Positions 35,545 to 64,000 of a DNA stretch of 64,000 bases are shown one piece after another. The stretch spans positions 38,254,001-38,318,000 of the forward strand of contig NW_027266275.1 of the NCBI RefSeq assembly GCF_022045235.1, read 5' to 3'. The DNA comes from Haliotis cracherodii (lineage: Eukaryota). Both the position numbers and the translations under genes were made by a program. Under the pieces are notes generated by a model. The model was not told the DNA's origin, did not search any database, and saw nothing but the letters and a program-made list of their open reading frames with translations. The first letter of the stretch is position 1. Every line of letters starts with the position of its first letter.

Positions 35545-35948
35545 GGAGGACGGCTACCTCTACTGCGAGCGAGACTACGAGCTGTACTTTGCCCCGAAGT
35601 GTACCAAGTGCAGTGCTGCCATTGTTGGAGTAAGTGAACAATGTTGTATTTATGTACACATTATTATACTATGACATCACAGATATAGAATGTTGTGGCC
35701 TTGCACTCGATCACATCCTCACTAAAGAGTTCAGTATTTGCTGTTATTTCGTGGCAGTATTGGAATAAAATAAATAGAAATATGTTTTTAGGAAAAATGT
35801 AGGCTATAGCAGAATCACAAGAGTAAGATTTCAATATTTTAACCTGAAGGCCTATGTCAACTGACCAGTGGGTGGTGAAGAAAGAACTCTGGTAGATTCT
35901 CTTTGAGATATCATTTGTTCACAGACAAGCTATATCTCCTGTGGAAGT
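35545..35948 (+). pseudogene. Duplicated fragment of the Zasp LIM1 exon 3' half plus following intron (source about 24533-24941)
   Basis: GYLYCERDYELYFAPKCTKCSAAIVG|gtaagt and about 320 bp of intron match the source closely. Confidence 0.95.
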
Positions 35949-38322: not shown

Positions 38323-39178
38323 ACCTGACCTTGAGATACAATAACATTTTACTTAGTGTTATAACTGAACGTCACTTAGAACTACTACTAGCTAATGCTG
38401 TTGCACCTGACCTTGCTTGAGATAAAAAATAACGTTATACTTAGTGTTATAACTGTACGTCACTTAGAACTACTACTAGCTAATGATGTCACACCTGACG
38501 TAGCTTGAGATACAAAAACGTTATACTTAGTGTAATAACCGTACGTCACTTAGTACTACTACTAGCTATTGATGTCACACCTGACGTAGCTTGAGATACA
38601 ATAACGTTATACTTAGTGTTATAACTGGACGTCACTCAGTACTACTACTAGCTATTGATGTCACACCTGACGTAGCTTGAGATACAATAACGTTATACTT
38701 AGTGTTATAACTGTACGTCACTTAGTACTACTACTAGCTAATGATGTCACACCTGACGTAGCTTGAGATACAAAAACGTTATACTTAGTGTTATAACCGT
38801 ACGTCACTCAGTACTACTACTAGCTATTGATGTCACACCTGATGTAGCTTGAGATACAATAACGTTATACTTAGTGTTATAACCGTACGTCACTTAGTAC
38901 TACTACTAGCTATTGATGTCACACCTAACGTAGCTTGAGATACAATAACGTAATACTTAGTGTTTTGCAACTGTACGTCACTTGGTACTACCACTAGCTA
39001 ATGATGTTACACGTGGCCTAGCTTGAGATACAATAATGTTATACTTAGTGTTATAACTGTACGTCACTTAGTACTTCTACTAGCTAATGCTGCTGCACCT
39101 GACCTTGAGATGCAATAATGTTATACTTAGTGTTATAACTGTACGTCACTTACTACTGCTACTAGCTAATGATGTCAC
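38323..39178. repeat. 86-bp tandem repeat, about 10 copies (continues 40867-40925; diverged unit near 37950-38040)
   Basis: ctgacgtagcttgagatac recurs at 38495, 38581, 38667 and onward. Confidence 0.95.
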
Positions 39179-40792: not shown

Positions 40793-41502
40793 TCTTAATT
40801 GTAATAAAGAAGTTGTTCATCCATAAATTCTTAGTACTCTAACTTCTAAGTGCCTATCAAAGAAGTTAATGATGTCACGCCTGAAGTAGCTTGAGATACA
40901 ATAACATTTTACTTGGTGTTGTAACTTGGCCGGGCTGTCAAAACTTATTGTTTCATCAATACGTCTGTGCATACATCTATACAATAGCATTATATCTATT
41001 TATATATCACTTTATAATGTTACAGTAAGTGCTCATCGATTTTCAGTTATCCATTGATATATTTTTTACCGCTATTGTTAACGTTTACACCAGATGGAAA
41101 TGGTTTCGTTGGAAAGTTGAAATTATTCTTTCTCTAGCATTGAATTTTTCATATGTGTATGGTTGGTCACAGGCATATTGCTTGATAACAACATCTGGTG
41201 TAACATAAAAACAAAGAATATTTGAATACAGAATATCTCGGTTTATTTCACATGGATATTTAACATTAACCGTGCCACGCATTTCAGCAAGAGGTAAGCT
41301 AATGTGTTTTAAATTATATTTTATTCAGGAAACAATAGTGAGAATAAGTCAGCCGAACAGACTAAATGTTAATATTTCCCTTTAAAATAACACGTGTTTT
41401 ATCACACACACACACTAACACACACACACTAACACACTTACACGAACACATGCTCATTCACTCACTCACTCGAACACATTCAGCAGTAAAAGGATAAGGA
41501 GT

Positions 41503-41772
41503 CTAAGAGAAGATCTTCCTAAAGAAGGCAGCAGCTCTCGTCAGCGCCTTTCTAAAGGGATGAATCTCTCTGTCATCCACAAAGCTGTGGTCGTCCTCGT
41601 CCTCGTACACCCAGTAGTCACTGTCATCGCCGTCACTTGGGGCAGGGTAGTGATCAGCGTGGTTAATGGTGACGGGGGCAGGGAGCGTCTCACCGTAGAC
41701 AGGGCGGGCCCAGAACGGAGTGAAGACGCTCAGGGGGTCGGGACAACGGGAAGGGGACACAGCCAGGGAACG
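41503..41772 (-). CDS. Array copy 1: putative terminal coding exon of an unknown small protein
   Basis: GC-rich open block of 89 codons after a pyrimidine tract and TAG; no ATG; acidic middle and cationic amphipathic C-terminus. Confidence 0.45.
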   Translation of the reverse strand, partial: RSLAVSPSRCPDPLSVFTPFWARPVYGETLPAPVTINHADHYPAPSDGDDSDYWVYEDEDDHSFVDDREIHPFRKALTRAAAFFRKIFS

Positions 41773-41990
41773 CTACACATCGAGGGGGTGGAAGGAGGGA
41801 CAAAGGGAGGCATGTGAGACAGAATACGGGATACGTTTGCAAAGAAAACGAATCACAGTTTATTATAGGGACTGGGCAGACTTAATGTACAATAAAACAG
41901 GGGCTATAATAGAAGGAAGAAGTGACAGGGAGGGCATGTAAAACTACATACACAGTCGGACTCCTCATCCTGAGACGGCCACAAACTCAC

Positions 41991-42031
41991 AGCCGCAGGA
42001 GTGCCATAATAGCGAATTATGTCCTCCCGAG
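41991..42031 (-). other. 41-nt internal exon of the array transcription unit (present in each copy)
   Basis: Minus strand: tttttctttttcag acceptor and gtgagt donor; the upstream 73-nt intron 42032-42104 starts gtaagt. Confidence 0.6.
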
Positions 42032-42354
42032 CTGAAAAAGAAAAACGAAAGCTAGGTTCAGTTAAATGTACGCCGGCGGCTGCGTTTACAAAATCACAAC
42101 TTACGTCTTCTGACAGCTACAATATGTCACTAGACCTCAGCCTTTTGACAATGCGAATTCCAAGTGTATGTTGGCTTTACAGGCTGTGCTGCAAGACCAC
42201 CATTAACCAATAAAATGGTCCAAACAGCTGCTTTTCACGTAATACAGGTTATCTTACATCTGTACTACATCGCTCGACACTATAATGAACGAACAGGTTA
42301 CATCTAAGCACCACGTCAAGTTTACAATCCAAATTTTTTAATTAAGACAATTGC

Positions 42355-42373
42355 AAATGGCGGCCGCCATCTT
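42355..42373. promoter_or_regulatory. Palindromic double YY1-like motif AAATGGCGGCCGCCATCTT (in each unit)
   Basis: Matches the AANATGGCG YY1 consensus on both strands; lies upstream of the minus-strand exons, near CCAAT motifs. Confidence 0.45.
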
Positions 42374-44172
42374 CAGTCCCGATACTGCTGCCTAACAACG
42401 ACCAATTTCACATCTAATTTAACATCTTAATACTGTTAAGTGGAATAATTGTGACCTTAAATACCTTGAATGTGAAGCCTTGTGTTCATCTTGGAAGAAG
42501 GCACACTTGGAAAGATACAGCAGTGAGCGAAACGTAGAGGTCAGCGGAGCAAATGCGATCGTTTTTCTGTTGTAAACAGAAGGGACGTGGGTAACGGCAA
42601 CGGTAACTACGTTACGGAGTTCGAGGACTCAGAACGAAGCTCATCGACAGCTTCCGGCGTGGTCAAGCCTAATGGCATTGCAGAGGCTGAAAACAGACGG
42701 GTTTATTTCGTCTGAACACCAGGCTTAAGTTGTAACTTACAACTGAAACGTTGCATACATCAGTTTAGAGTTTGAAAAAACGTGCTGGTGAAACTGGGTG
42801 TTTTTCGTGCCTCCATTACTCGGAACAGGGCGAATTTTGTTCATTTTCATATGGATCATCACTTGTAGACATTAACCTTAAACGTTGGCTGGGCCGAATA
42901 GCGATGCCATATAAGAACCCTCTGTTATACCAGTCTTCACAATACCTTTCACATTCGACAATCTGACACGGGCTAGTGGGCTAGTAAGAATGTGAGGGAG
43001 ACTAGATATTTTTTCAGCTACGGATGCAAAACCAGTTATAAACTATGAGCCTAAATAAAACTTTTCTTTAAAAAACACACACCTTGCAACAATTTATTTT
43101 TGGTGGCCGACATGTTCTTTTTGTTCAACAGTCTGAAGCATAATTATTTTCCAATCAATTTCTGAGACAATTTATTTGTTTCTGATAAAATCCTTCCCAC
43201 CCACACACTCACAGTCAGAGAAATCCAATTGTCCGTTCCATTTTGAAAACGCTGATGTGGACGTATAGGGGACGAATTCAGACCCCTTCTATCATTTATG
43301 TATTTTTGTAGAATGCCAGATACGAATATTACGTCATATTTGTATTAATCTACTCTTGCATACAAGTAGGTGTCAACATAGGCTTTTTACTTGCACCTGA
43401 CCACAGCCTATGTATAAAAGCATGCCCTCTGCTTTTTCTGAAGATCACGGGCCAAAGGAACAGCAGTGAAGTCGATTTCTGGAAGGCCACAATGAAGAGA
43501 CGAGTAGAATCCAATATTGTCTGGGTCGAAGGGAGATCACTCTCAATCCCTTGTCCGACTACCGGTATTAGATGGTGAAGTGCTCGTAATATATCCTATG
43601 TGGCGACACTTGTGTTTTAGAGAAGAAAGGCAATTCTCGATTCGAACTCCATCAATAGGAAGCCACAATCATTGTTTCATTAGAAAAGTTTAGCTAGTTA
43701 ATTGGAATATTAAAATTCTTCAATAACAAAGTGTCCAAGAGAGCTATCCTCGGAAAATATCCCGTGTCACAATTGTCGCCACATAAAAATTTAGAAGTAT
43801 CAAATCTTAAGGTAGCCCCACCTATTCAGAAATCTTCTGCCGAGTACAGATCATGAAATTGGGACACAGCAGAACAGCAATATAGGGGCAACTTTCACTG
43901 ATTAACAATATCCATATGAATTTATGTCTCATGTTCGGGAACCTTGGGATTTGGCCAGATGCCTATATTGCGATGCTGCTGTCGCCCAGATATTATTAGC
44001 TGTAAGGATGAAACACTGTAGACAAAACAGACAACTTGTGTATACATTACAGAAACATTTATTCAGATAACAGAAAGCCGAAAGTAATATGCCTCAAGAG
44101 AGATAAAAAAACGGGCCAAAATTGTATAGAACGTATAGTCTTGTGCGATTCTAATAAGCCAAGAGGTTTGCC

Positions 44173-44189
44173 GAAACGAAAGTGAAAGT
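44173..44189 (+). promoter_or_regulatory. IRF-binding-site-like GAAACGAAAGTGAAAGT (in each complete unit)
   Basis: Tandem GAAA repeats matching the IRF-E/ISRE consensus. Confidence 0.4.
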
Positions 44190-44400
44190 TGGGCCCAAAT
44201 GTATGTGCCTAAAAATACGCCAAAATGCACAAAGAGCGGTTATGTGGAAAGGTACTCTCTCTCTCTCTCTCCCTCTCTCTCTATCTCTCTCTCTCTCTTA
44301 TACAGACATGTATGTACTCGTTAATTCACTCTAACTCTCATCTCTAACATACATACCTTCTTCCTCTCACACACACATACATACATACTCATTCAGTCAG

Positions 44401-44440
<40 letters not shown>

Positions 44441-44790
44441 ACACACATTAGCACACTAACACACTAACACGAACACATGCTCATTCAATCTTTCATTTAC
44501 ACTCACATACGCACACATACATACACACATGCTCATTCACTCACTCACTCCAACACATTCAGACATTAAAAGGATAAGGAGTCTAAGAGAAGATCACACA
44601 CACATACATACATACTCATTCAGTCAGTCAATCACACAGACACACACACACACACACTAGCACACTTACACACTTACACGAACACATGCTCATTCAATCT
44701 TTCATTTACTCTCACATACGCACACATACATACACACATGCTCATTCACTCACTCACTCGAACACATTCAGCAGTAAAAGGATAAGGAGT

Positions 44791-45060
44791 CTAAGAGAAG
44801 ATCTTCCTAAAGAAGGCAGCAGCTCTCGTCAGCGCCTTTCTAAAGGGATGAATCTCTCTATCATCCACAAAGCTGTGGTCGTCCTCGTCCTCGTACACCC
44901 AGTAGTCACTGTCATCGTCGTCACTTGGGGCAGGGTAGTGATCAGCGTGGTTAATGGTGACGGGGGCAGGGAGCGTCTCACCGTAGACAGGGCGGGCCCA
45001 GAACGGAGTGAAGACGCTCAGGGGGTCGGGACAACGGGAAGGGGACACAGCCAGGGAACG
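44791..45060 (-). CDS. Array copy 2 of the putative small-protein exon
   Basis: Open frame; SDDDD variant; one synonymous change. Confidence 0.45.
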   Translation of the reverse strand, partial: RSLAVSPSRCPDPLSVFTPFWARPVYGETLPAPVTINHADHYPAPSDDDDSDYWVYEDEDDHSFVDDREIHPFRKALTRAAAFFRKIFS

Positions 45061-47550
45061 CTACACATCGAGGGGGTGGAAGGAGGGACAAAGGGAGGCA
45101 TGTGAGACAGAATACGGGATACGTTTGCAAAGAAAACGAATCACAGTTTATTATAGGGACTGGGCAGACTTAATGTACAATAAAACAGGGGCTATAATAG
45201 AAGGAAGAAGTGACAGGGAGGGCATGTAAAACTACATACACAGTCGGACTCCTCATCCTGAGACGGCCACAAACTCACAGCCGCAGGAGTGCCATAATAG
45301 CGAATTATGTCCTCCCGAGCTGAAAAAGAAAAACGAAAGCTAGGTTCAGTTAAATGTACGCCGGCGGCTGCGTTTACAAAATCACAACTTACGTCTTCTG
45401 ACAGCTACAATATGTCATTAGACCTCGGCCTTTTGACAATGCGAATTCCAAGTGTATGTGGGCTTTACAGGCTGTGCTGCAAGACCACCATTAACCAATA
45501 AAATGGGCCAAACAGCTGCTTTTCACGTAATACAGGTTATCTTACATCTGTACTACAACGCTCGACACTATAATGAACGAACAGGTTTCATCTAAGCACC
45601 ACATGTCAAGTTTACAATCCAAATTTTTCAATTAAGACAATTGCAAATGGCGGCCGCCATCTTCAGTCCCGATACTGCTGCCTAACAACGACCAATTTCA
45701 CATCTATATTAACATCTTAATACTGTTAAGTGGAATAATTGTGACCTTAAATACCTTGAATGTGAAGCCTTGTGTTCATCTTGGAAGAAGGCACACTTGG
45801 AAAGATACAGCAGTGAGCGAAACGTAGAGGTCAGCGGAGCAAATGCGATCGTTTTTCTGTTGTAAACAGAAGGGACGTGGGTAACGGCAACGGTAACTAT
45901 GTTACGGAGTTCGAGGACTCAGAACGAGGCTCATCGACAGCTTCCGGCGTGGTCAAGCCTAATGGCATTGCAGAGGCTGAAAACAGACGGGTTTATTTCG
46001 TCTGAACACCAGGCTTAAGTTGTAACTTACAACTGAAACGTTGCATACATCAGTTTAGAGTTTGAAAAAAACGTGCTGGTGAAACTGGGTGTTTTTCGTG
46101 CCTCCATTACTCGGAACAGGGCGAATTTTGTTCATTTTCATATGGATCATCACTTGTAGACATTAACCTGAAACGTTGGCCACGTGGCTGGGCCGAATAG
46201 CGATACCATATAAGAACCCTCTGTTATACCAGCCTTCACAATACCTTTTACATTCGACAAACTGACACGGGCTAGTGGGCTAGTAAGAATGTGAGGGAGA
46301 CTAGATATTTTTTCAGCTATGGATGCAAAACCAGTTATAAACTATGAGCCTAAATAAAACTTTTCTTTAAAAAACACACACCTTGCAACAATTTATTTTT
46401 GGTGGCCGACATGTTCTTTTTGTTCAACAGTCTGAAGCATAATTATTTTCCAATCAATTTCTGAGACAATTTATTTGTTTCTGATAAAATCCTTCCCACC
46501 CACACACTCACAGTCAGAGAAATCCAATTGTCCGTTCCATTTTGAAAACGCTGATGTGGACGTACAGGGGACGAATTCAGACCCCTTCTATCATTTATGT
46601 ATTTTTGTAGAATGCCAGATACGAATATTACGTCATATTTGTATTAATCTACTCTTGCATACAAGTAGGTGTCAACATAGGCGTTTTACTTGCACCTGAC
46701 CACAGCCTATGTATAAAAGCATGCCCTCTGCTTTTTCTGAAGATCACAGGCCAAAGGAACAGCAGTGAAGTCGATTTCTGGAAGGCCACAATGAAGAGAC
46801 GAGTGGAATCCAATATTGTCTGGGGCGAAGGGAGATCACTCTCAATCCCTTGTCCGACTACCGGTATTAGATGGTGAAGTGCTCGTAATATATCCTATGT
46901 GGCGACACTTGTGTTTTAGAGAAGAAAGGCAATTCTCGATTCGAACTCCATCAATAGGAAGCCACAATCATTGTTTCATTAGAAAAGTTTAGCTAGTTTA
47001 TTGGAATATTAAAATTCTTCAATAACAAAGTGTCCAAGAGAGCTATCCTCGGAAAATATCCCGTGTCACAATTGTCGCCACATAAAAATTTAGAAGTGTC
47101 AAATCTTAAGGTAGCCCCACCTATTCAGAAATCTTCTGCCGAGTACAGATCATGAAATTGGGACACAGCAGAACAGCAATATAGGGGCAACTTTCACTGA
47201 TTAACAATATCCATATGAATTTATGTCTCGTGTTCGGGAACCTTGGGATTTGGCCAGATGCCTATATTGCGATGCTGCTGTCGCCCAGATATTATTAGCT
47301 GTAAGGATGAAACACTGTAGACAAAACAGACAACTTGTGTATACATTACAGAAACATTTATTCAGATCACAGAAAGCCGAAAGTAATATGCCTCAAGAGA
47401 GATCCAAAAACGGGCCAAAATTGTATAGAACGTATAGTCTTGTGCGATTCTAATAAGCCAAGAGGTTTGCCGAAACGAAAGTGAAAGTTGGGCCAAAATG
47501 TATGTGCCTAAAAATACGCCAAAATGCACAAAGAGCAGTTATGTGGAAAG

Positions 47551-47614
<64 letters not shown>

Positions 47615-48127
47615 ACAGACATATATGTACTCGTTAATTCACTCTAACTCTCATCTCTAACATACATACCTTCTTCCTCTCACACACACATACATACATA
47701 CTCATTCAGTCAGTCACACACACAGACACACAGACACACACACACACATTAGCACACTTACACACTAATACACTAACACGAACACATGCTCATTCAATCT
47801 TTCATTTACACTCACATACGCACACATACATACACACATGCTCATTCTCTCACTCACTCGAACACATTCAGACATTAAAAGGATAAGGAGTCTAAGAGAA
47901 GATCACACACACATTCATACATACTCATTCAGTCAGTCAATCACACAGACACACATACACACAAACACACACACACACACTAACACACACACACTAGCAC
48001 ACTTACACACTTACACGAACACATGCTCATTCAATCTTTCATTTACTCTCACATACGCACACATACATACACACATGCTCATTCACTCACTCACTCGAAC
48101 ACATTCAGCAGTAAAAGGATAAGGAGT

Positions 48128-48397
48128 CTAAGAGAAGATCTTCCTAAAGAAGGCAGCAGCTCTCGTCAGCGCCTTTCTAAAGGGATGAATCTCTCTGTCA
48201 TCCACAAAGCTGTGGTCGTCCTCGTCCTCGTACACCCAGTAGTCACTGTCATCGTCGTCACTTGGGGCAGGGTAGTGATCAGCGTGGTTAATGGTGACGG
48301 GGGCAGGGAGCGTCTCACCGTAGACAGGGCGGGCCCAGAACGGAGTGAAGACGCTCAGGGGGTCGGGACAACGGGAAGGGGACACAGCCAGGGAACG
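48128..48397 (-). CDS. Array copy 3 of the putative small-protein exon
   Basis: Open frame; same protein as copies 2, 6 and 7. Confidence 0.45.
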   Translation of the reverse strand, partial: RSLAVSPSRCPDPLSVFTPFWARPVYGETLPAPVTINHADHYPAPSDDDDSDYWVYEDEDDHSFVDDREIHPFRKALTRAAAFFRKIFS

Positions 48398-51300
48398 CTA
48401 CACATCGAGGGGGTGGAAGGAGGGACAAAGGGAGGTATGTGAGACAGAATACGGGATACGTTTGCAAAGAAAACGAATCACAGTTTATTATAGGGACTGG
48501 GCAGACTTAATGTACAATAAAACAGGGGCTATAATAGAAGGAAGAAGTGACAGGGAGGGCATGTAAAACTACATACACAGTCGGACTCCTCATCCTGAGA
48601 CGGCCACAAACTCACAGCCGCAGGAGTGCCATAATAGCGAATTATGTCCTCCCGAGCTGAAAAAGAAAAACGAAAGCTAGGTTCAGTTAAATGTACGCCG
48701 GCGGCTGCGTTTACAAAATCACAACTTACGTCTTCTGACAGCTACAATATGTCACTAGACCTCGGCCTTTTGACAATGCGAATTTCAAGTGTATGTGGGC
48801 TTTACAGGCTGTGCTGCAATACCACCATTAACCAATAAAATGGGTCAAACAGCTGCTTTTCACGTAATACAGGTTATCTTACATCTGTACTACATCGCTC
48901 GACACTATAATGAACGAACAGGTTTCATCTAAGCACCACATGTCAAGTTTACAATCCAAATTTTTCAATTAAGACAATTGCAAATGGCGGCCGCCATCTT
49001 CAGTCCCGATACTGCTGCCTAACAACGACCAATTTCACATCTATATTAACATCTTAATACTGTTAAGTGGAATAATTGTGACCTTAAATACCTTGAATGT
49101 GAAGCCTTGTGTTCATCTTGGAAGAAGGCACACTTGGAAAGATACAGCAGTGAGCGAAACGTAGAGGTCAGCGGAGCAAATGCGATCGTTTTTCTGTTGT
49201 AAACAGAAGGGACGTGGGTAACGGCAACGGTAACTACGTTACGGAGTTCGAGGACTCAGAACGAGGCTCATCGACAGCTTCCGGCGTGGTCAAGCCTAAT
49301 GGCATTGCAGAGGCTGAAAACAGACGGGTTTATTTCGTCTGAACACCAGGCTTAAGTTGTAACTTACAACTGAAACGTTGCATACATCAGTTTAGAGTTT
49401 GAAAAAACGTGCTGGTGAAACTGGGTGTTTTTCGTGCCTCCATTACTCGGAACAGGGCGAATTTTGTTCATTTTCATATGGATCATCACTTGTAGACATT
49501 AACCTGAAACGTTGGCCACGTGGCTGGGCCGAATAGCGATACCATATAAGAACCCTCTGTTATACCAGCCTTCACAATACCTTTTACATTCGACAAACTG
49601 ACACGGGCTAGTGGGCTAGTAAGAATGTGAGGGAGACTAGATATTTTTTCAGCTACGGATGCAAAACCAGTTATAAACTATGAGCCTAAATAAAACTTTT
49701 CTTTAAAAAACACACACCTTGCAACAATTTATTTTTGGTGGCCGACATGTTCTTTTTGTTCAACAGTCTGAAGCATAATTATTTTCCAATCAATTTCTGA
49801 GACAATTTATTTGTTTCTGATAAAATCCTTCCCACCCACACACTCACAGTCAGAGAAATCCAATTGTCCGTTCCATTTTGAAAACGCTGATGTGGACGTA
49901 CAGGGGACGAATTCAGACCCCTTCTATCATTTATGTATTTTTGTAGAATGCCAGATACGAATATTACGTCATATTTGTATTAATCTACTCTTGCATACAA
50001 GTAGGTGTCAACATAGGCTTTTTACTTGCACCTGACCACAGCCTATGTATAAAAGCATGCCCTCTGCTTTTTCTGAAGATCACAGGCCAAAGGAACAGCA
50101 GTGAAGTCGATTTCTGGAAGGCCACAATGAAGAGACGAGTGGCATCCAATATTGTCTGGGGCGAAGGGAGATCACTCTCAATCCCTTGTCCGACTACCGG
50201 TATTAGATGGTGAAGTGCTCGTAATATATCCTATGTGGCGACACTTGTGTTTTAGAGAAGAAAGGCAATTCTCGATTCGAACTCCATCAATAGGAAGCCA
50301 CAATCATTGTTTCATTAGAAAAGTTTAGCTAGTTAATTGGAATATTAAAATTCTTCAATAACAAAGTGTCCAAGAGAGCTATCCTCGGAAAATATCCCGT
50401 GTCACAATTGTCGCCACATAAAAATTTAGAAGTATCAAATCTTAAGGTAGCCCCACCTATTCAGAAATCTTCTGCCGAGTACAGATCATGAAATTGGGAC
50501 ACAGCAGAACAGCAATGTAGGGGCAACTTTCACTGATTAACAATATCCATAGGAATTTATGTCTCATGTTCGGGAACCTTGGGATTTGGCCAGATGCCTA
50601 TATTGCGATGCTGCTGTCGCCCAGATATTATTAGCTGTAAGGATGAAACACTGTAGACAAAACAGACAACTTGTGTATACATTACAGAAACATTTATTCA
50701 GATAACAGAAAGCCGAAAGTAATATGTCTCAAGAGAGATCCAAAAACGGGCCAAAATTGTATAGAACGTATAGTCTTGTGCGATTCTAATAAGCCAAGAG
50801 GTTTGCCGAAACGAAAGTGAAAGTTGGGCCAAAATGTATGTGCCTAAAAATACGCCAAAATGCACAAAGAGCGGTTATGTGGAAAGGTACTCTCTCTCTC
50901 TCTCACTCTCTCTCTCTCTCTGTGTCTTATACAGACATATATGTACTCGTTAATTCACTCTAACTCTCATCTCTAACATACATACCTTCTTCCTCTCACA
51001 CACACATACATACATACTCATTCAGTCAGTCACACACACAGACACACACACAGACACACACACACATTAGCACACTTACACACTAACACGAACACATGCT
51101 CATTCAATCTTTCATTTACACTCACATACGCACACATACATACACACATGCTCATTCACTCACTCACTCCAACACATTCAGACATTAAAAGGATAAGGAG
51201 TCTAAGAGAAGATCACACACACATACATACATACTCATTCAGTCAGTCAATCACACAGACACACAGACACATTAGCACACTTACACACTAACACGAACAC

Positions 51301-51642
51301 ATGCTCATTCAATCTTTCATTTACACTCACATACGCACACATACATTCACACATGCTCATTCACTCACTCACTCGAACACATTCAGACATTAAAAGGATA
51401 AGGAGTCTAAGAGAAGATCACACACACATACATACATACTCATTCAGTCAGTCAATCACACAGACACACACACACACACACACACTGACACACTAACACA
51501 CACACACACTAGCACACTTACACATTTACACGAACACATGCTCATTCAATCTTTCATTTACTCTCACATACGCACACATACATACACACATGCTCATTCA
51601 CTCACTCACTCGAACACATTCAGCAGTAAAAGGATAAGGAGT

Positions 51643-51912
51643 CTAAGAGAAGATCTTCCTAAAGAAGGCAGCAGCTCTCGTCAGCGCCTTTCTAAAGGGA
51701 TGAATCTCTCTGTCATCCACAAAGCTGTGGTCGTCCTCGTCCTCGTACACCCAGTAGTCACTGTCATCGTCGTCACTTGGGGCAGGGTAGTGATCAGCGT
51801 GGTTAATGGTGACGGGGGCAGGGAGCGTCTCACCGTAGACAGGGCGGGCCCAGAACGGAGTGAAGACGCTCAGGGGCGCGGGACAACGGGAAGGGGACAC
51901 AGCCAGGGAACG
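51643..51912 (-). CDS. Array copy 4 of the putative small-protein exon
   Basis: Open frame; CPAPL variant. Confidence 0.45.
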   Translation of the reverse strand, partial: RSLAVSPSRCPAPLSVFTPFWARPVYGETLPAPVTINHADHYPAPSDDDDSDYWVYEDEDDHSFVDDREIHPFRKALTRAAAFFRKIFS

Positions 51913-54900
51913 CTACACATCGAGGGGGTGGAAGGAGGGACAAAGGGAGGCATGTGAGACAGAATACGGGATACGTTTGCAAAGAAAACGAATCACAGTT
52001 TATTATAGGGACTGGGCAGACTTAATGTACAATAAAACAGGGGCTATAATAGAAGGAAGAAGTGACAGGGAGGGCATGTAAAACTACATACACAGTCGGA
52101 CTCCTCATCCTGAGACGGCCACAAACTCACAGCCGCAGGAGTGCCATAATAGCGAATTATGTCCTCCCGAGCTGAAAAAGAAAAACGAAAGCTAGGTTCA
52201 GTTAAATGTACGCCGGCGGCTGCGTTTACAAAATCACAACTTACGTCTTCTGACAGCTACAATATGTCATTAGACCTCGGCCTTTTGACAATGCGAATTC
52301 CAAGTGTATGTGGGCTTTACAGGCTGTGCTGCAAGACCACCATTAACCAATAAAATGGGCCAAACAGCTGCTTTTCACGTAATACAGGTTATCTTACATC
52401 TGTACTACAACGCTCGACACTATAATGAACGAACAGGTTTCATCTAAGCACCACATGTCAAGTTTACAATCCAAATTTTTCAATTAAGACAATTGCAAAT
52501 GGCGGCCGCCATCTTCAGTCCCGATACTGCTGCCTAACAACGACCAATTTCACATCTATATTAACATCTTAATACTGTTAAGTGGAATAATTGTGACCTT
52601 AAATACCTTGAATGTGAAGCCTTGTGTTCATCTTGGAAGAAGGCACACTTGGAAAGATACAGCAGTGAGCGAAACGTAGAGGTCAGCGGAGCAAATGCGA
52701 TCGTTTTTCTGTTGTAAACAGAAGGGACGTGGGTAACGGCAACGGTAACTACGTTACGGAGTTCGAGGACTCAGAACGAGGCTCATCGACAGCTTCCGGC
52801 GTGGTCAAGCCTAATGGCATTGCAGAGGCTGAAAACAGACGGGTTTATTTCGTCTGAACACCAGGCTTAAGTTGTAACTTACAACTGAAACGTTGCATAC
52901 ATCAGTTTAGAGTTTGAAAAAACGTGCTGGTGAAACTGGGTGTTTTTCGTGCCTCCATTATTCGGAACAGGGCAAATTTTGTTCATTTTCATATGGATCA
53001 TCACTTGTAGACATTAACCTGAAACGTTGGCCACGTGGCTGGGCCGAATAGCGATACCATATAAGAACCCTCTGTTATACCAGCCTTCACAATACCTTTT
53101 ACATTCGACAAACTGACACGGGCTAGTGGGCTAGTAAGAATGTGAGGGAGACTAGATATTTTTTCAGCTATGGATGCAAAACCAGTTATAAACTATGAGC
53201 CTAAATAAAACTTTTCTTTAAAAAACACACACCTTGCAACAATTTATTTTTGGTGGCCGACATGTTCTTTTTGTTCAACAGTCTGAAGCATAATTATTTT
53301 CCAATCAATTTCTGAGACAATTTATTTGTTTCTGATAAAATCCTTCCCACCCACACACTCACAGTCAGAGAAATCCAATTGTCCGTTCCATTTTGAAAAC
53401 GCTGATGTGGACGTACAGGGGACGAATTCAGACCCCTTCTATCATTTATGTATTTTTGTAGAATGCCAGATACGAATAGTACGTCATATTTGTATTAATC
53501 TACTCTTGCATACAAGTAGGTGTCAACATAGGCGTTTTACTTGCACCTGACCACAGCCTATGTATAAAAGCATGCCCTCTGCTTTTTCTGAAGATCACGG
53601 GCCAAAGGAACAGCAGTGAAGTCGATTTCTGGAAGGCCACAATGAAGAGACGAGTGGAATCCAATATTGTCTGGGTCGAAGGGAGATCACTCTCAATCCC
53701 TTGTCCGACTACCGGTATTAGATGGTGAAGTGCTCGTAATATATCCTATGTGGCGACACTTGTGTTTTAGAGAAGAAAGGCAATTCTCGATTCGAACTCC
53801 ATCAATAGGAAGCCACAATCATTGTTTCATTAGAAAAGTTTAGCTAGTTAATTGGAATATTAAAATTCTTCAATAACAAAGTGTCCAAGAGAGCTATCCT
53901 CGGAAAATATCCCGTGTCACAATTGTCGCCACATAAAAATTTAGAAGTGTCAAATCTTAAGGTAGCCCCACCTATTCAGAAATCTTCTGCCGAGTACAGA
54001 TCATGAAATTGGGACACAGCAGAACAGCAATATAGGGGCAACTTTCACTGATTAACAATATCCATATGAATTTATGTCTCGTGTTCGGGAACCTTGGGAT
54101 TTGGCCAGATGCCTATATTGCGATGCTGCTGTCGCCCAGATATTATTAGCTGTAAGGATGAAACACTGTAGACAAAACAGACAACTTGTGTATACATTAC
54201 AGAAACATTTATTCAGATAACAGAAAGCCGAAAGTAATATGTCTCAAGAGAGATCCAAAAACGGGCCAAAATTGTATAGAACGTATAGTCTTGTGCGATT
54301 CTAATAAGCCAAGAGGTTTGCCGAAACGAAAGTGAAAGTTGGGCCAAAATGTATGTGCCTAAAAATACGCCAAAATGCACAAAGAGCGGTTATGTGGAAA
54401 GGTACTCTCTCTCTCTCTCACTCTCTCTCTCTCTGTGTCTTATACAGACATATATGTACTCGTTAATTCACTCTAACTCTCATCTCTAACATACATACCT
54501 TCTTCCTCTCACACACACATACATACATACTCATTCAGTCAGTCACACACACAGACACACACACAGACACACACACACATTAGCACACTTACACACTAAC
54601 ACGAACACATGCTCATTCAATCTTTCATTTACACTCACATACGCACACATACATACACACATGCTCATTCACTCACTCACTCCAACACATTCAGACATTA
54701 AAAGGATAAGGAGTCTAAGAGAAGATCACACACACATTCATACATACTCATTCAGTCAGTCAATCACACAGACACACAGACACATTAGCACACTTACACA
54801 CTAACACGAACACATGCTCATTCAATCTTTCATTTACACTCACATACGCACACATACATTCACACATGCTCATTCACTCACTCACTCGAACACATTCAGA

Positions 54901-55157
54901 CATTAAAAGGATAAGGAGTCTAAGAGAAGATCACACACACATACATACATACTCATTCAGTCAGTCAATCACACAGACACACACACACACACACACACAC
55001 TGACACACTAACACACACACACACTAGCACACTTACACATTTACACGAACACATGCTCATTCAATCTTTCATTTACTCTCACATACGCACACATACATAC
55101 ACACATGCTCATTCACTCACTCACTCGAACACATTCAGCAGTAAAAGGATAAGGAGT

Positions 55158-55427
55158 CTAAGAGAAGATCTTCCTAAAGAAGGCAGCAGCTCTCGTCAGC
55201 GCCTTTCTAAAGGGATGAATCTCTCTGTCATCCACAAAGCTGTGGTCGTCCTCGTCCTCGTACACCCAGTAGTCACTGTCATCGTCGTCACTTGGGGCAG
55301 GGTAGTGATCAGCGTGGTTAATGGTGACGGGGGCAGGGAGCGTCTCACCGTAGACAGGGCGGGCCCAGAACGGAGTGAAGACGCTCAGGGGCGCGGGACA
55401 ACGGGAAGGGGACACAGCCAGGGAACG
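55158..55427 (-). CDS. Array copy 5 of the putative small-protein exon
   Basis: Open frame; CPAPL variant. Confidence 0.45.
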   Translation of the reverse strand, partial: RSLAVSPSRCPAPLSVFTPFWARPVYGETLPAPVTINHADHYPAPSDDDDSDYWVYEDEDDHSFVDDREIHPFRKALTRAAAFFRKIFS

Positions 55428-57916
55428 CTACACATCGAGGGGGTGGAAGGAGGGACAAAGGGAGGCATGTGAGACAGAATACGGGATACGTTTGCAAAGA
55501 AAACGAATCACAGTTTATTATAGGGACTGGGCAGACTTAATGTACAATAAAACAGGGGCTATAATAGAAGGAAGAAGTGACAGGGAGGGCATGTAAAACT
55601 ACATACACAGTCGGACTCCTCATCCTGAGACGGCCACAAACTCACAGCCGCAGGAGTGCCATAATAGCGAATTATGTCCTCCCGAGCTGAAAAAGAAAAA
55701 CGAAAGCTAGGTTCAGTTAAATGTACGCCGGCGGCTGCGTTTACAAAATCACAACTTACGTCTTCTGACAGCTACAATATGTCATTAGACCTCGGCCTTT
55801 TGACAATGCGAATTCCAAGTGTATGTGGGCTTTACAGGCTGTGCTGCAAGACCACCATTAACCAATAAAATGGGCCAAACAGCTGCTTTTCACGTAATAC
55901 AGGTTATCTTACATCTGTACTACAACGCTCGACACTATAATGAACGAACAGGTTTCATCTAAGCACCACATGTCAAGTTTACAATCCAAATTTTTCAATT
56001 AAGACAATTGCAAATGGCGGCCGCCATCTTCAGTCCCGATACTGCTGCCTAACAACGACCAATTTCACATCTATATTAACATCTTAATACTGTTAAGTGG
56101 AATAATTGTGACCTTAAATACCTTGAATGTGAAGCCTTGTGTTCATCTTGGAAGAAGGCACACTTGGAAAGATACAGCAGTGAGCGAAACGTAGAGGTCA
56201 GCGGAGCAAATGCGATCGTTTTTCTGTTGTAAACAGAAGGGACGTGGGTAACGGCAACGGTAACTACGTTACGGAGTTCGAGGACTCAGAACGAGGCTCA
56301 TCGACAGCTTCCGGCGTGGTCAAGCCTAATGGCATTGCAGAGGCTGAAAACAGACGGGTTTATTTCGTCTGAACACCAGGCTTAAGTTGTAACTTACAAC
56401 TGAAACGTTGCATACATCAGTTTAGAGTTTGAAAAAACGTGCTGGTGAAACTGGGTGTTTTTCGTGCCTCCATTATTCGGAACAGGGCGAATTTTGTTCA
56501 TTTTCATATGGATCATCACTTGTAGACATTAACCTGAAACGTTGGCCACGTGGCTGGGCCGAATAGCGATACCATATAAGAACCCTCTGTTATACCAGCC
56601 TTCACAATACCTTTTACATTCGACAAACTGACACGGGCTAGTGGGCTAGTAAGAATGTGAGGGAGACTAGATATTTTTTCAGCTATGGATGCAAAACCAG
56701 TTATAAACTATGAGCCTAAATAAAACTTTTCTTTAAAAAACACACACCTTGCAACAATTTATTTTTGGTGGCCGACATGTTCTTTTTGTTCAACAGTCTG
56801 AAGCATAATTATTTTCCAATCAATTTCTGAGACAATTTATTTGTTTCTGATAAAATCCTTCCCACCCACACACTCACAGTCAGAGAAATCCAATTGTCCG
56901 TTCCATTTTGAAAACGCTGATGTGGACGTACAGGGGACGAATTCAGACCCCTTCTATCATTTATGTATTTTTGTAGAATGCCAGATACGAATAGTACGTC
57001 ATATTTGTATTAATCTACTCTTGCATACAAGTAGGTGTCAACATAGGCGTTTTACTTGCACCTGACCACAGCCTATGTATAAAAGCATGCCCTCTGCTTT
57101 TTCTGAAGATCACGGGCCAAAGGAACAGCAGTGAAGTCGATTTCTGGAAGGCCACAATGAAGAGACGAGTGGAATCCAATATTGTCTGGGTCGAAGGGAG
57201 ATCACTCTCAATCCCTTGTCCGACTACCGGTATTAGATGGTGAAGTGCTCGTAATATATCCTATGTGGCGACACTTGTGTTTTAGAGAAGAAAGGCAATT
57301 CTCGATTCGAACTCCATCAATAGGAAGCCACAATCATTGTTTCATTAGAAAAGTTTAGCTAGTTAATTGGAATATTAAAATTCTTCAATAACAAAGTGTC
57401 CAAGAGAGCTATCCTCGGAAAATATCCCGTGTCACAATTGTCGCCACATAAAAATTTAGAAGTGTCAAATCTTAAGGTAGCCCCACCTATTCAGAAATCT
57501 TCTGCCGAGTACAGATCATGAAATTGGGACACAGCAGAACAGCAATATAGGGGCAACTTTCACTGATTAACAATATCCATATGAATTTATGTCTCGTGTT
57601 CGGGAACCTTGGGATTTGGCCAGATGCCTATATTGCGATGCTGCTGTCGCCCAGATATTATTAGCTGTAAGGATGAAACACTGTAGACAAAACAGACAAC
57701 TTGTGTATACATTACAGAAACATTTATTCAGATCACAGAAAGCCGAAAGTAATATGCCTCAAGAGAGATCCAAAAACGGGCCAAAATTGTATAGAACGTA
57801 TAGTCTTGTGCGATTCTAATAAGCCAAGAGGTTTGCCGAAACGAAAGTGAAAGTTGGGCCAAAATGTATGTGCCTAAAAATACGCCAAAATGCACAAAGA
57901 GCAGTTATGTGGAAAG

Positions 57917-57960
<44 letters not shown>

Positions 57961-58471
57961 ACAGACATATATGTACTCGTTAATTCACTCTAACTCTCAT
58001 CTCTAACATACATACCTTCTTCCTCTCACACACACATACATACATACTCATTCAGTCAGTCACACACACAGACACACAGACACACACACACATTAGCACA
58101 CTTACACACTAATACACTAACACGAACACATGCTCATTCAATCTTTCATTTACACTCACATACGCACACATACATACACACATGCTCATTCTCTCACTCA
58201 CTCGAACACATTCAGACATTAAAAGGATAAGGAGTCTAAGAGAAGATCACACACACATTCATACATACTCATTCAGTCAGTCCATCACACAGACACACAT
58301 ACACACAAACACACACACACACACTAACACACACACACTAGCACACTTACACACTTACACGAACACATGCTCATTCAATCTTTCATTTACTCTCACATAC
58401 GCACACATACATACACACATGCTCATTCACTCACTCACTCGAACACATTCAGCAGTAAAAGGATAAGGAGT

Positions 58472-58741
58472 CTAAGAGAAGATCTTCCTAAAGAAGGCAG
58501 CAGCTCTCGTCAGCGCCTTTCTAAAGGGATGAATCTCTCTGTCATCCACAAAGCTGTGGTCGTCCTCGTCCTCGTACACCCAGTAGTCACTGTCATCGTC
58601 GTCACTTGGGGCAGGGTAGTGATCAGCGTGGTTAATGGTGACGGGGGCAGGGAGCGTCTCACCGTAGACAGGGCGGGCCCAGAACGGAGTGAAGACGCTC
58701 AGGGGGTCGGGACAACGGGAAGGGGACACAGCCAGGGAACG
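58472..58741 (-). CDS. Array copy 6 of the putative small-protein exon
   Basis: Open frame. Confidence 0.45.
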   Translation of the reverse strand, partial: RSLAVSPSRCPDPLSVFTPFWARPVYGETLPAPVTINHADHYPAPSDDDDSDYWVYEDEDDHSFVDDREIHPFRKALTRAAAFFRKIFS

Positions 58742-61700
58742 CTACACATCGAGGGGGTGGAAGGAGGGACAAAGGGAGGTATGTGAGACAGAATACGGGA
58801 TACGTTTGCAAAGAAAACGAATCACAGTTTATTATAGGGACTGGGCAGACTTAATGTACAATAAATCAGGGGCTATAATAGAAGGAAGAAGTGACAGGGA
58901 GGGCATGTAAAACTACATACACAGTCGGACTCCTCATCCTGAGACGGCCACAAACTCACAGCCGCAGGAGTGCCATAATAGCGAATTATGTCCTCCCGAG
59001 CTGAAAAAGAAAAACGAAAGCTAGGTTCAGTTAAATGTACGCCGGCGGCTGCGTTTACAAAATCACAACTTACGTCTTCTGACAGCTACAATATGTCACT
59101 AGACCTCGGCCTTTTGACAATGCGAATTTCAAGTGTATGTGGGCTTTACAGGCTGTGCTGCAAGACCACCATAAACCAATAAAATGGGTCAAACAGATGC
59201 TTTTCACGTAATACAGGTTATCTTACATCTGTACTACATCGCTCGACACTATAATGAACGAACAGGTTTCATCTAAGCACCACATGTCATGTTTACAATC
59301 CAAATTTTTCAATTAAGACAATTGCAAATGGCGGCCGCCATCTTCAGTCCCGATACTGCTGCCTAACAACGACCAATTTCACATCTATATTAACATCTTA
59401 ATACTGTTAAGTGGAATAATTGTGACCTTAAATACCTTGAATGTGAAGCCTTGTGTTCATCTTGGAAGAAGGCACACTTGGAAAGATACAGCAGTGAGCG
59501 AAACGTAGAGGTCAGCGGAGCAAATGCGATCGTTTTTCTGTTGTAAACAGAAGGGACGTGGGTAACGGCAACGGTAACTACGTTACGGAGTTCGAGGACT
59601 CAGAACGAGGCTCATCGACAGCTTCCGGCGTGGTCAAGCCTAATGGCATTGCAGAGGCTGAAAACAGACGGGTTTATTTCGTCTGAACACCAGGCTTAAG
59701 TTGTAACTTACAACTGAAACGTTGCATACATCAGTTTAGAGTTTGAAAAAACGTGCTGGTGAAACTGGGTGTTTTTCGTGCCTCCATTACTCGGAACAGG
59801 GCGAATTTTGTTCATTTTCATATGGATCATCACTTGTAGACATTAACCTGAAACGTTGGCCACGTGGCTGGGCCGAATAGCGATACCATATAAGAACCCT
59901 CTGTTATACCAGCCTTCACAATACCTTTTACATTCGACAAACTGACACGGGCTAGTGGGCTAGTAAGAATGTGAGGGAGACTAGATATTTTTTCAGCTAC
60001 GGATGCAAAACCAGTTATAAACTATGAGCCTAAATAAAACTTTTCTTTAAAAAACACACACCTTGCAACAATTTATTTTTGGTGGCCGACATGTTCTTTT
60101 TGTTCAACAGTCTGAAGCATAATTATTTTCCAATCAATTTCTGAGACAATTTATTTGTTTCTGATAAAATCCTTCCCACCCACACACTCACAGTCAGAGA
60201 AATCCAATTGTCCGTTCCATTTTGAAAACGCTGATGTGGACGTACAGGGGACGAATTCAGACCCCTTCTATCATTTATGTATTTTTGTAGAATGCCAGAT
60301 ACGAATATTACGTCATATTTGTATTAATCTACTCTTGCATACAAGTAGGTGTCAACATAGGCGTTTTACTTGCACCTGACCATAGCCTATGTATAAAAGC
60401 ATGCCCTCTGCTTTTTCTGAAGATCACAGGCCAAAGGAACAGCAGTGAAGTCGATTTCTGGAAGGCCACAATGATTAGACGAGTGGCATCCAATATTGTC
60501 TGGGGCGAAGGGAGATCACTCTCAATCCCTTGTCCGACTACCGGTATTAGATGGTGAAGTGCTCGTAATATATTCTATGTGGCGACACTTGTGTTTTAGA
60601 GAAGAAAGGCAATTCTCGATTCGAACTCCATCAATAGGAAGCCACAATCATTGTTTCATTAGAAAAGTTTAGCTAGTTAATTGGAATATTAAAATTCTTC
60701 AATAACAAAGTGTCCAAGAGAGCTATCCTCGGAAAATATCCCGTGTCACAATTGTCGCCACATAAAAATTTAGAAGTGTCAAATCTTAAGGTAGCCCCAC
60801 CTATTCAGAAATCTTCTGCCGAGTACAGATCATGAAATTGGGACACAGCAGAACAGCAATGTAGGGGCAACTTTCACTGATTAACAATATCCATAGGAAT
60901 TTATGTCTCATGTTCGGGAACCTTGGGATTTGGCCAGATGCCTATATTGCGATGCTGCTGTCGCCCAGATATTATTAGCTGTAAGGATGAAACACTGTAG
61001 ACAAAACAGACAACTTGTGTATACATTACAGAAACATTTATTCAGATAACAGAAAGCCGAAAGTAATATGTCTCAAGAGAGATCCAAAAACGGGCCAAAA
61101 TTGTATAGAACGTATAGTCTTGTGCGATTCTAATAAGCCAAGAGGTTTGCCGAAACGAAAGTGAAAGTTGGGCCAAAATGTATGTGCCTAAAAATACGCC
61201 AAAATGCACAAAGAGCGGTTATGTGGAAAGGTACTCTCTCTCTCTCTCACTCTCTCTCTCTCTGTGTCTTATACAGACATATATGTACTCGTTAATTCAC
61301 TCTAACTCTCATCTCTAACATACATACCTTCTTCCTCTCACACACACATACATACATACTCATTCAGTCAGTCACACACACAGACACACACACAGACACA
61401 CACACACATTAGCACACTTACACACTAACACGAACACATGCTCATTCAATCTTTCATTTACACTCACATACGCACACATACATACACACATGCTCATTCA
61501 CTCACTCACTCCAACACATTCAGACATTAAAAGGATAAGGAGTCTAAGAGAAGATCACACACACATACATACATACTCATTCAGTCAGTCAATCACACAG
61601 ACACACAGACACATTAGCACACTTACACACTAACACGAACACATGCTCATTCAATCTTTCATTTACACTCACATACGCACACATACATTCACACATGCTC

Positions 61701-61810
61701 ATTCACTCACTCACTCGAACACATTCAGACATTAAAAGGATAAGGAGTCTAAGAGAAGATCACACACACATACATACATACTCATTCAGTCAGTCAATCA
61801 CACAGACACA

Positions 61811-61847
<37 letters not shown>

Positions 61848-62000
61848 ACACACTAACACACACACACTAGCACACTTACACATTTACACGAACACATGCT
61901 CATTCAATCTTTCATTTACTCTCACATACGCACACATACATACACACATGCTCATTCACTCACTCACTCGAACACATTCAGCAGTAAAAGGATAAGGAGT

Positions 62001-62270
62001 CTAAGAGAAGATCTTCCTAAAGAAGGCAGCAGCTCTCGTCAGCGCCTTTCTAAAGGGATGAATCTCTCTGTCATCCACAAAGCTGTGGTCGTCCTCGTCC
62101 TCGTACACCCAGTAGTCACTGTCATCGTCGTCACTTGGGGCAGGGTAGTGATCAGCGTGGTTAATGGTGACGGGGGCAGGGAGCGTCTCACCGTAGACAG
62201 GGCGGGCCCAGAACGGAGTGAAGACGCTCAGGGGGTCGGGACAACGGGAAGGGGACACAGCCAGGGAACG
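62001..62270 (-). CDS. Array copy 7 of the putative small-protein exon
   Basis: Open frame. Confidence 0.45.
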   Translation of the reverse strand, partial: RSLAVSPSRCPDPLSVFTPFWARPVYGETLPAPVTINHADHYPAPSDDDDSDYWVYEDEDDHSFVDDREIHPFRKALTRAAAFFRKIFS

Positions 62271-64000
62271 CTACACATCGAGGGGGTGGAAGGAGGGACA
62301 AAGGGAGGCATGTGAGACAGAATACGGGATACGTTTGCAAAGAAAACGAATCACAGTTTATTATAGGGACTGGGCAGACTTAATGTACAATAAAACAGGG
62401 GCTATAATAGAAGGAAGAAGTGACAGGGAGGGCATGTAAAACTACATACACAGTCGGACTCCTCATCCTGAGACGGCCACAAACTCACAGCCGCAGGAGT
62501 GCCATAATAGCGAATTATGTCCTCCCGAGCTGAAAAAGAAAAACGAAAGCTAGGTTCAGTTAAATGTACGCCGGCGGCTGCGTTTACAAAATCACAACTT
62601 ACGTCTTCTGACAGCTACAATATGTCATTAGACCTCGGCCTTTTGACAATGCGAATTCCAAGTGTATGTGGGCTTTACAGGCTGTGCTGCAAGACCACCA
62701 TTAACCAATAAAATGGGCCAAACAGCTGCTTTTCACGTAATACAGGTTATCTTACATCTGTACTACAACGCTCGACACTATAATGAACGAACAGGTTTCA
62801 TCTAAGCACCACATGTCAAGTTTACAATCCAAATTTTTCAATTAAGACAATTGCAAATGGCGGCCGCCATCTTCAGTCCCGATACTGCTGCCTAACAACG
62901 ACCAATTTCACATCTATATTAACATCTTAATACTGTTAAGTGGAATAATTGTGACCTTAAATACCTTGAATGTGAAGCCTTGTGTTCATCTTGGAAGAAG
63001 GCACACTTGGAAAGATACAGCAGTGAGCGAAACGTAGAGGTCAGCGGAGCAAATGCGATCGTTTTTCTGTTGTAAACAGAAGGGACGTGGGTAACGGCAA
63101 CGGTAACTACGTTACGGAGTTCGAGGACTCAGAACGAGGCTCATCGACAGCTTCCGGCGTGGTCAAGCCTAATGGCATTGCAGAGGCTGAAAACAGACGG
63201 GTTTATTTCGTCTGAACACCAGGCTTAAGTTGTAACTTACAACTGAAACGTTGCATACATCAGTTTAGAGTTTGAAAAAACGTGCTGGTGAAACTGGGTG
63301 TTTTTCGTGCCTCCATTATTCGGAACAGGGCGAATTTTGTTCATTTTCATATGGATCATCACTTGTAGACATTAACCTGAAACGTTGGCCACGTGGCTGG
63401 GCCGAATAGCGATACCATATAAGAACCCTCTGTTATACCAGCCTTCACAATACCTTTTACATTCGACAAACTGACACGGGCTAGTGGGCTAGTAAGAATG
63501 TGAGGGAGACTAGATATTTTTTCAGCTATGGATGCAAAACCAGTTATAAACTATGAGCCTAAATAAAACTTTTCTTTAAAAAACACACACCTTGCAACAA
63601 TTTATTTTTGGTGGCCGACATGTTCTTTTTGTTCAACAGTCTGAAGCATAATTATTTTCCAATCAATTTCTGAGACAATTTATTTGTTTCTGATAAAATC
63701 CTTCCCACCCACACACTCACAGTCAGAGAAATCCAATTGTCCGTTCCATTTTGAAAACGCTGATGTGGACGTACAGGGGACGAATTCAGACCCCTTCTAT
63801 CATTTATGTATTTTTGTAGAATGCCAGATACGAATAGTACGTCATATTTGTATTAATCTACTCTTGCATACAAGTAGGTGTCAACATAGGCGTTTTACTT
63901 GCACCTGACCACAGCCTATGTATAAAAGCATGCCCTCTGCTTTTTCTGAAGATCACGGGCCAAAGGAACAGCAGTGAAGTCGATTTCTGGAAGGCCACAA

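Follow-up and report, generated by a model that had tools for sequence, protein, structure and literature searches.

A multi-copy gene family restricted to abalones encodes a small protein with a conserved cationic amphipathic end helix

What does the open frame at 41503-41772 encode? In the window analysed here, the whole 64,000-nucleotide stretch of Haliotis cracherodii DNA, the minus strand carries at these positions an open frame of 89 codons followed by TAG. A sequence-only reading had described it as an orphan peptide with a Pro-rich N-terminus, an acidic and aromatic tract and a cationic amphipathic C-terminal helix. The frame and the end helix are real, but the frame is not a whole peptide; it is exon 3 of an animal gene with three coding exons. 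It has no ATG and starts directly after a splice acceptor, the TAG immediately upstream doubling as that acceptor, and 35 further residues come from two upstream exons. The modelled product has 124 residues, and its coding sequence runs from the ATG at 42489 to 42465 in exon 1, from 42031 to 41952 in exon 2 and from 41772 to 41503 in exon 3; eight RefSeq proteins are identical to it at 118-122 of the 124 positions. The GTG start given by the ORF finder is not the true start of the gene, and the RefSeq isoforms of 140-145 aa begin inside intron 1, where the 41503 copy has no ATG. The introns and the gene array had both escaped the sequence-only reading. The features of the array and of the unit at 41503 are as follows.

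41433..64000, minus strand: tandem array with a unit of 3.3-3.5 kb; self-BLAST identity 96-98%
43391..43523, minus strand: upstream non-coding exon, traced 5′ as far as 43523; joint 42686-43391 in run X7 (side 133), loose end in X12
42465..42686, minus strand: exon 1, 5′ UTR and first 25 coding nt; ATG at 42489-42487, present in 57/57 modelled copies
42032..42464, minus strand: intron 1, GT..AG, phase 1; spliced out in contigs of runs X1, X2, X3 and X7
41952..42031, minus strand: coding exon 2, 80 nt, residues 9-35; conserved island in diverged copies, joint 42031-42465
41773..41951, minus strand: intron 2, GT..AG, phase 0, T-poor acceptor; retained in some RNA-type contigs of B-type copies
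41503..41772, minus strand: coding exon 3, for residues 36-124 plus TAG; none of the other five frames is both stop-free in 43/43 copies and low in pN/pS (0.28 here)
41566..41634, minus strand: acidic-aromatic tract, residues 82-104; invariant Y88, V90, Y91, F99 and V100, lowest pN of five segments
41506..41559, minus strand: C-terminal cationic amphipathic helix, residues 107-124; supported by moment, charge of +5, helical wheel and AlphaFold2

The frame had been read as a singleton, which does not hold. The window contains seven units with exon 3 at 41503, 44791, 48128, 51643, 55158, 58472 and 62001, each with one copy of the frame, and the array to which they belong has 14 units in all and ends near G000:C12:38,345,400. 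When the genome (1.18 Gb in 80 contigs) was searched with an exact 22-letter pattern spanning the end of exon 1 and the donor, 184 matches were obtained, and the reversed control gave none. At least 66 copies with at least 91% identity were found among the best 150 of 241 candidates, and at least 129 further, more diverged copies among the best 150 of 462, so that the genome holds approximately 190 copies. They are spread over approximately 30 sites on seven contigs (C1, C2, C12, C34, C45, C56 and C78), in tandem units of 3-5 kb across the family. Two subfamilies can be distinguished, A with a product of 124 aa (30 of 57 modelled copies) and B with one of 122 aa (27 of 57).

Copies clustered largely by array. 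In a midpoint-rooted FastTree tree, the H. asinina proteins fell with B, and the H. rufescens proteins fell with separate A arrays; this placement indicates that the family predates the splits of these species. The edges of seven A-type arrays lay at differing positions of the unit with homology continuing across the apparent boundaries, the recurring B-type boundaries were insertions in the query unit, and no common termini of the kind that mark fixed transposable-element ends were present at the array edges examined. The pattern fits duplication in tandem, with new sites founded now and then and the arrays homogenised afterwards. A dispersed-repeat piece at 42997-43150 is common to many unrelated RNA-type contigs, and two array edges, in L015 (43146) and L024 (43136), lie at its border, which hints at recombination through this repeat. 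Neighbouring pairs of arrays in opposite orientation were also seen, at G000 C1:34.88 and 35.28-35.32 Mb, at C78:53.32-53.37 and 53.96-53.99 Mb and at C56:32.67-32.75 Mb, and the stretch from L011:9038 to L012:2205 is one unit of the window's array with an insertion of approximately 3.2 kb in intron 1.

The gene model was examined across copies using 70 exon-3 matches in 40 fetched stretches plus the window. Eight of these were cut by the end of the locus and five had no exon 1 within 1 kb, leaving 57 modelled copies. The ATG was present in 57/57, the donor GT in 57/57 for both introns, the acceptor AG in 56/57 for intron 1 and 57/57 for intron 2, and a single terminal stop in 56/57; the stretches were fetched around the best matches, and the share of intact copies is therefore biased upward and these values are maxima. 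Some copies are broken (L048:8707, L022:3539 and L059), and local frame changes occur in L042:9457 and L049:588. Between diverged copies and the window unit only three islands aligned, 42330-42666, 41941-42045 and 41492-41806, which by their positions correspond in turn to exon 1 together with the first part of intron 1, to exon 2 and to exon 3. Likewise, exons align between the subfamilies, whereas introns (274-631 and 166-353 nt) do not.

Conservation extends upstream of the coding region, as the 5′ UTR is still approximately 70-73% identical in those B copies that cannot be aligned in the spacers. The exon 1 motifs GGAA and GTAAC/GTTAC are kept in both subfamilies within 42560-42660, and the conserved GGAA near 42652-42657 is one that we take to be ETS-like. 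A 15-mer in intron 1 at 42351-42365, identical in 15 of 15 aligned copies, is presumably YY1-like. A TATA-less promoter is likely to lie close to 42660.

Selection was measured on 43 unique intact coding sequences, after three damaged and 11 duplicate models had been dropped. Between A and B, the Nei-Gojobori method gave dS of 0.71 and dN of 0.115, a dN/dS of 0.16, and the codon bootstrap ranged from 0.10 to 0.27 on 30 pairs with no replicate at or above 1; within A and within B the ratios were 0.14 and 0.13, from pairs that are not independent. Among the six frames of exon 3, the frame originally noticed was free of stops in 43/43 sequences with a pN/pS of 0.28, so its conservation in homologues, on which the earlier claim had been staked, was upheld. 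Four of the other frames had stops in 43/43, and the fifth, an antisense frame open in 41/43 copies, had a pN/pS of 1.12; the antisense open frame at 41560-41817 was accordingly set aside as a shadow. We regard the protein-coding family as almost certainly real, and it has the features of an ampliconic family, a tandem multi-copy protein gene with many near-identical copies and intact, selected frames.

Constraint was unevenly distributed along the chain, with pN of 0.08 at residues 1-35, 0.24 at 36-50, 0.10 at 51-80, 0.05 at 81-104 and 0.15 at 105-124. The tightest constraint is on the acidic tract (pN 0.05 versus pS 0.60), and the whole chain, not merely a pro-piece, is under purifying selection. 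Residues 4-16, 24-35, 48-59, 63-71 and 86-100 form invariant patches and residues 37-47 a variable linker, a pattern that short binding motifs would be expected to leave in a disordered chain.

Parts of the unit were contained in 15 runs guessed to be RNA (8 studies, 4 organism labels), and six guessed-RNA runs and two of five large runs of unrecorded kind were compared with the gene. The joint 42031-42465, which removes intron 1 and shows CT..AC ends, was found in 4/4 of the guessed-RNA runs X1, X2, X3 and X7, from four studies, with sides of 19-28 letters, below the 31-letter rule; it was not listed in the large runs X16 and X20. The upstream junction of the list comes from X7, with a matching loose end in X12, and in X6 exon 1 is joined to exon 2 with just 116 letters between them (side 53). 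No joint between exons 2 and 3 was among those listed in the eight runs, and this joint therefore rests on the conserved GT/AG, the frame selection and the RefSeq models. Contigs of X6, X7 and X12 extend from exon 2 into intron 2, one X6 contig extends into it from exon 3, and in X6 and X12 the loose letters correspond to B-type intron 2. The T fraction at the acceptor is 0.26 for intron 2 versus 0.82 for intron 1. Read-through into intron 2 meets a stop after 43-65 residues with tails that are not conserved, so exon 3 would stay untranslated in those transcripts that retain the last intron. This retention may be regulated or may merely reflect pre-mRNA, and since contigs lose rare forms it is a lead only. 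The depth of contigs varies between runs and between exon and intron and cannot rank expression.

We turn to the protein itself. The last 18 residues contain five K/R and no D/E, and the helical spacing of F/L/I noticed earlier was borne out by a helical wheel, on which all of them fall on one face. The hydrophobic moment of this segment (Fauchere-Pliska scale) is 0.56, the highest of any 18-mer in the protein, and was reached by 56 of 10,000 shuffles, the 18-residue span having been picked after the peptide was seen. The moment is 0.56 in A, 0.69 in B and 0.61 in H. asinina, with a charge of +5 or +6 and shuffle p of 0.002-0.006; the substitutions are mostly conservative (F/W, K/R, I/V, A/V), and a continuous 180-degree apolar face with five to six aromatic or large aliphatic residues, accompanied by a basic face, is present in all three. 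The helix sits at the extreme end of the chain. The rest of the chain has a net charge of -9 to -11 and 10-11% Pro. AlphaFold2 returned a single helix at 107-123 and no confident fold (mean pLDDT 56, pTM 0.16), the low pLDDT being no proof of disorder because the alignment was shallow, with 22 close sequences.

Other parts of the first description need adjustment. The acidic and aromatic tract is present, but the quoted SDDDDSDY reads SDGDDSDY in this copy; the G is private to the 41503 copy (1/59 sequences), and D stands there in the other six window copies. The Pro-rich N-terminus is modest only, with Pro at 9 of 46 positions in residues 36-81 and 12 of 124 overall. The absence of a signal peptide was confirmed at the true N-terminus as far as hydropathy goes, since residues 1-35 of three representatives lack a hydrophobic core (best 8-residue Kyte-Doolittle mean 0.95-1.01), and nowhere is the chain hydrophobic enough for a signal peptide or transmembrane segment (best 19-residue mean 0.15-0.40). 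The statement that there is no dibasic cleavage site also agrees with our data: the only basic residue between the tract and the helix is R103, which 12 of 13 H. asinina proteins have lost, and the RK/RR pairs lie inside the helix. No canonical LIR, FFAT, PxIxIT or RVxF motif was conserved in both subfamilies by eye.

Database searches placed the family in one genus. RefSeq proteins named uncharacterized from three Haliotis species match, the best at 122/124 residues; examples from the same gene family are XP_048243251.1 of H. rufescens, XP_071106956.1 of H. cracherodii and XP_067685017.1 of H. asinina. These relatives comprise 39 sequences in two clusters, the A-type models being identical at 118-122/124 positions and the B-type approximately 78% identical, and they are automatic models with no function assigned, 39 sequences against approximately 190 genomic copies. 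Two of the RefSeq models, P0029 and P0033, of 655 and 890 aa, carry 9-11 exon-3 repeats each and are likely chimeras joined across neighbouring tandem B-type copies, so that public annotation undercounts the family. Word-indexed protein searches returned Haliotis proteins only. An HMM scan of 1.84 billion representatives gave five matches at E ≤ 0.001, two from Haliotis and three repeat proteins (P0030-P0032), which were judged spurious as their scores were summed over 5-9 short stretches; no relative outside Haliotis, and no viral or transposon relative, was found among these representatives. Pfam gave no family for exon 3 and, with alignments A1 and A2, only matches below the cut-off (LTI65_LTI78_N, best E 0.055-0.14; MRPL52, 0.24), Rfam gave none in the window, and in the ESM Atlas P0001 had one match at 0.78, at chance level, and P0022 none among named clusters. 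Matches in the PDB (SH3, alphaRep, SEM1) were all non-significant. An SH3 domain was rejected, the spectrin SH3 matches having E of 0.22-1.7 only, with no Pfam SH3 and no strand in the model, and so was SEM1/PF05160, which was absent from the matches listed for all 22 + 22 members, reached 2.8% in hhalign and failed the shuffle and reverse controls. Published work on the family was not found by LOC/XP identifiers, peptide motifs or topic in the portions of text searched; abalone transcriptome and proteome tables and supplements may carry the genes under other identifiers. This is a real, previously uncharacterised, genus-restricted multi-copy gene family.

What the product does can be answered only tentatively. 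In the reading we prefer, at somewhat short of an even chance, the frame is the last exon of an abalone gene of approximately 190 copies, whose product, with no secretion signal, is a predicted cytosolic, disordered motif or docking protein tethered to inner membranes by its cationic end helix, and the copy number provides dosage. The 124-residue protein would be made and remain in the cytosol, and the end helix would fold on anionic bilayers and thereby tether the chain. The short invariant patches, with Y16, Y88, Y91, T19-P, S41-P and T53-P, are candidate binding or phosphorylation sites, and, with no cleavage, the acidic tract may act as a cis mask for the helix. The many copies would serve dosage, arising and decaying by tandem duplication in a birth-and-death process. 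The earlier proposal of a membrane-active or membrane-anchored peptide thus survives in part: with the helix conserved, its changes conservative and its moment and charge kept, a membrane anchor is still the best guess, but the antimicrobial or lytic precursor is weak. A bolder version, which we consider unlikely, is that the family is an undescribed abalone-specific amplicon of approximately 190 selected copies, older than the H. asinina split, which encodes a membrane-tethered disordered protein whose tract and helix would be switched on when the last intron, a weak one, is removed under regulation, so that much protein is made at once in a single tissue or stage such as the germline, embryo or haemocytes.

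Basic amphipathic helices take to lipid no more readily than to nucleic acid, calmodulin or the grooves of proteins, and the same gene could encode a small disordered hub like DSS1/SEM1, in which the acidic-aromatic tract is the main binding site and the helix would fold upon binding to nucleic acid or a protein partner and fold back on the tract. The strong constraint on the tract (pN 0.05) favours this, as do a weak ungapped PDB match to SEM1 (E 0.17) and a layout recalling Dss1, whose C-terminal helix folds back to shield a binding region according to PMC6218214. The SEM1 match is compositional, however: the hhalign probability is 2.8%, reversed SEM1 outscores the forward sequence for 3/3 A copies tested, and the shuffle p is 0.04-0.16 in 5/6 copies, the sixth (p 0.005) having a private D-to-Y change. 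The genome also has its own SEM1, and the helix appears more cationic and aromatic than a fold-back cap would need. We consider the hub rather unlikely. The cationic helix as an antimicrobial or lytic peptide, released with no leader and freed from its acidic pro-piece by a protease, was the original suggestion, and multigene arrays are usual for antimicrobial peptides. Charge and moment resemble those of such peptides, and oyster and abalone molluscidins likewise have no signal peptide according to PMC5577615. A secreted precursor is nevertheless unlikely because the protein lacks a signal peptide and a conserved basic site ahead of the helix. Moreover, residues 1-81 are constrained like the helix (pN 0.08-0.10 at 1-35 and 51-80, against 0.15), the would-be mature part is not hypervariable as it is in myticalins, and molluscidins are dibasic repeats with no anionic pro-region, both as described there; overall this explanation is very improbable.

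Copy number itself could be the point, if the family were a selfish or conflict-driven amplicon: a gene of viral origin, a mobile unit, or a driver or suppressor acting in the germline. Flies and mice have ampliconic drive genes, and approximately 190 copies at 30 or so sites on seven contigs, new arrays at distant sites and restriction to one genus would suit it. Against this, array edges fall at differing points of the unit with homology running past the boundaries and no fixed ends seen, the introns are spliceosomal, the HMM scan found no viral or transposon relative, selection is strongly purifying and not diversifying, and array lineages also occur in H. rufescens, so we think it quite unlikely. 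That the frame stands open by chance in a satellite-like repeat would fit the near-identical tandem repeat with its CA/CT microsatellites, and is exceedingly improbable, being already largely refuted by the frame-specific dN/dS of 0.16, the retained ATG and splice sites, the exon-only conservation and the spliced contigs.

Under the tethered docking protein that we prefer, a functional likeness is with the MinD membrane-targeting sequence, also a short basic-aromatic helix at the extreme C-terminus of a protein with no transmembrane segment; the tails of GRK5 and FtsA are further terminal amphipathic membrane-targeting helices. The conserved terminal helix, segregated aromatic face and basic flanks of such anchors are all present here, membrane binding being predicted. 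There is no sequence relation to MinD, however, where the helix anchors a folded enzyme, whereas the abalone helix would anchor a chain with no predicted fold. DSS1/SEM1 is likewise small and disordered, with an acidic-aromatic chain and a helix at its C-terminal end (PMC6218214), but the likeness is compositional, a separate SEM1 gene lies at G000:C10, and SEM1 has a splice donor directly beyond the aligned part, where the abalone gene has none. FITZAP (sp6) is also small, acidic, disordered and abalone-specific, but PMC6952181 describes for it two exons, a signal peptide, a poly-Asp stretch encoded by exon 1 at the N-terminus, and cleavage by furin to 3-4 kDa, none of which is found in the present gene, and by this description the two are distinct. 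Myticalins resemble the family in being multigene and taxon-restricted with a cationic segment beside an anionic one, and molluscidins in being multigene, taxon-restricted and free of a signal peptide; as reported in PMC5577615, myticalins carry a signal peptide and a KR site that is conserved, their mature part being hypervariable, and molluscidins have dibasic repeats with no anionic region. Of the features of an antimicrobial prepropeptide, the cationic amphipathic helix is present here and the signal peptide and conserved basic processing site are not.

A genus-restricted protein with no known relative is thus kept at approximately 190 copies under purifying selection in abalones, which include farmed and threatened animals. 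Protein genes at such copy numbers are few (histones, germline amplicons and immune effectors) and mark strong dosage need or genetic conflict. With the gene structure, the A and B subfamilies and the possible intron retention described, the family can be tested directly in existing RNA-seq, and mis-joined RefSeq models are flagged.

Several further elements were observed in the window. On the plus strand at 22763-26200, a Pro/Gly-rich exon is followed by three LIM-type segments, read from translations, at approximately 23150-24600, 25120 and 26080. We take this to be a PDZ-LIM-like gene; Pfam on the single exons tried gave no match, and the gene appears to end well before the array. Minisatellites with periods of 37, 51 and 86 bp occupy 6828-7625, 25243-25939 and 38330-39178. 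A second copy of the LIM exon 24534-24941, 93% identical, lies near a remnant of a DDE_3 (Tc1-like) transposase (E 1.4e-11), the remnant and the exon copy being covered by 33593-34165 and 35545-35948, and this second copy is possibly a captured gene fragment.
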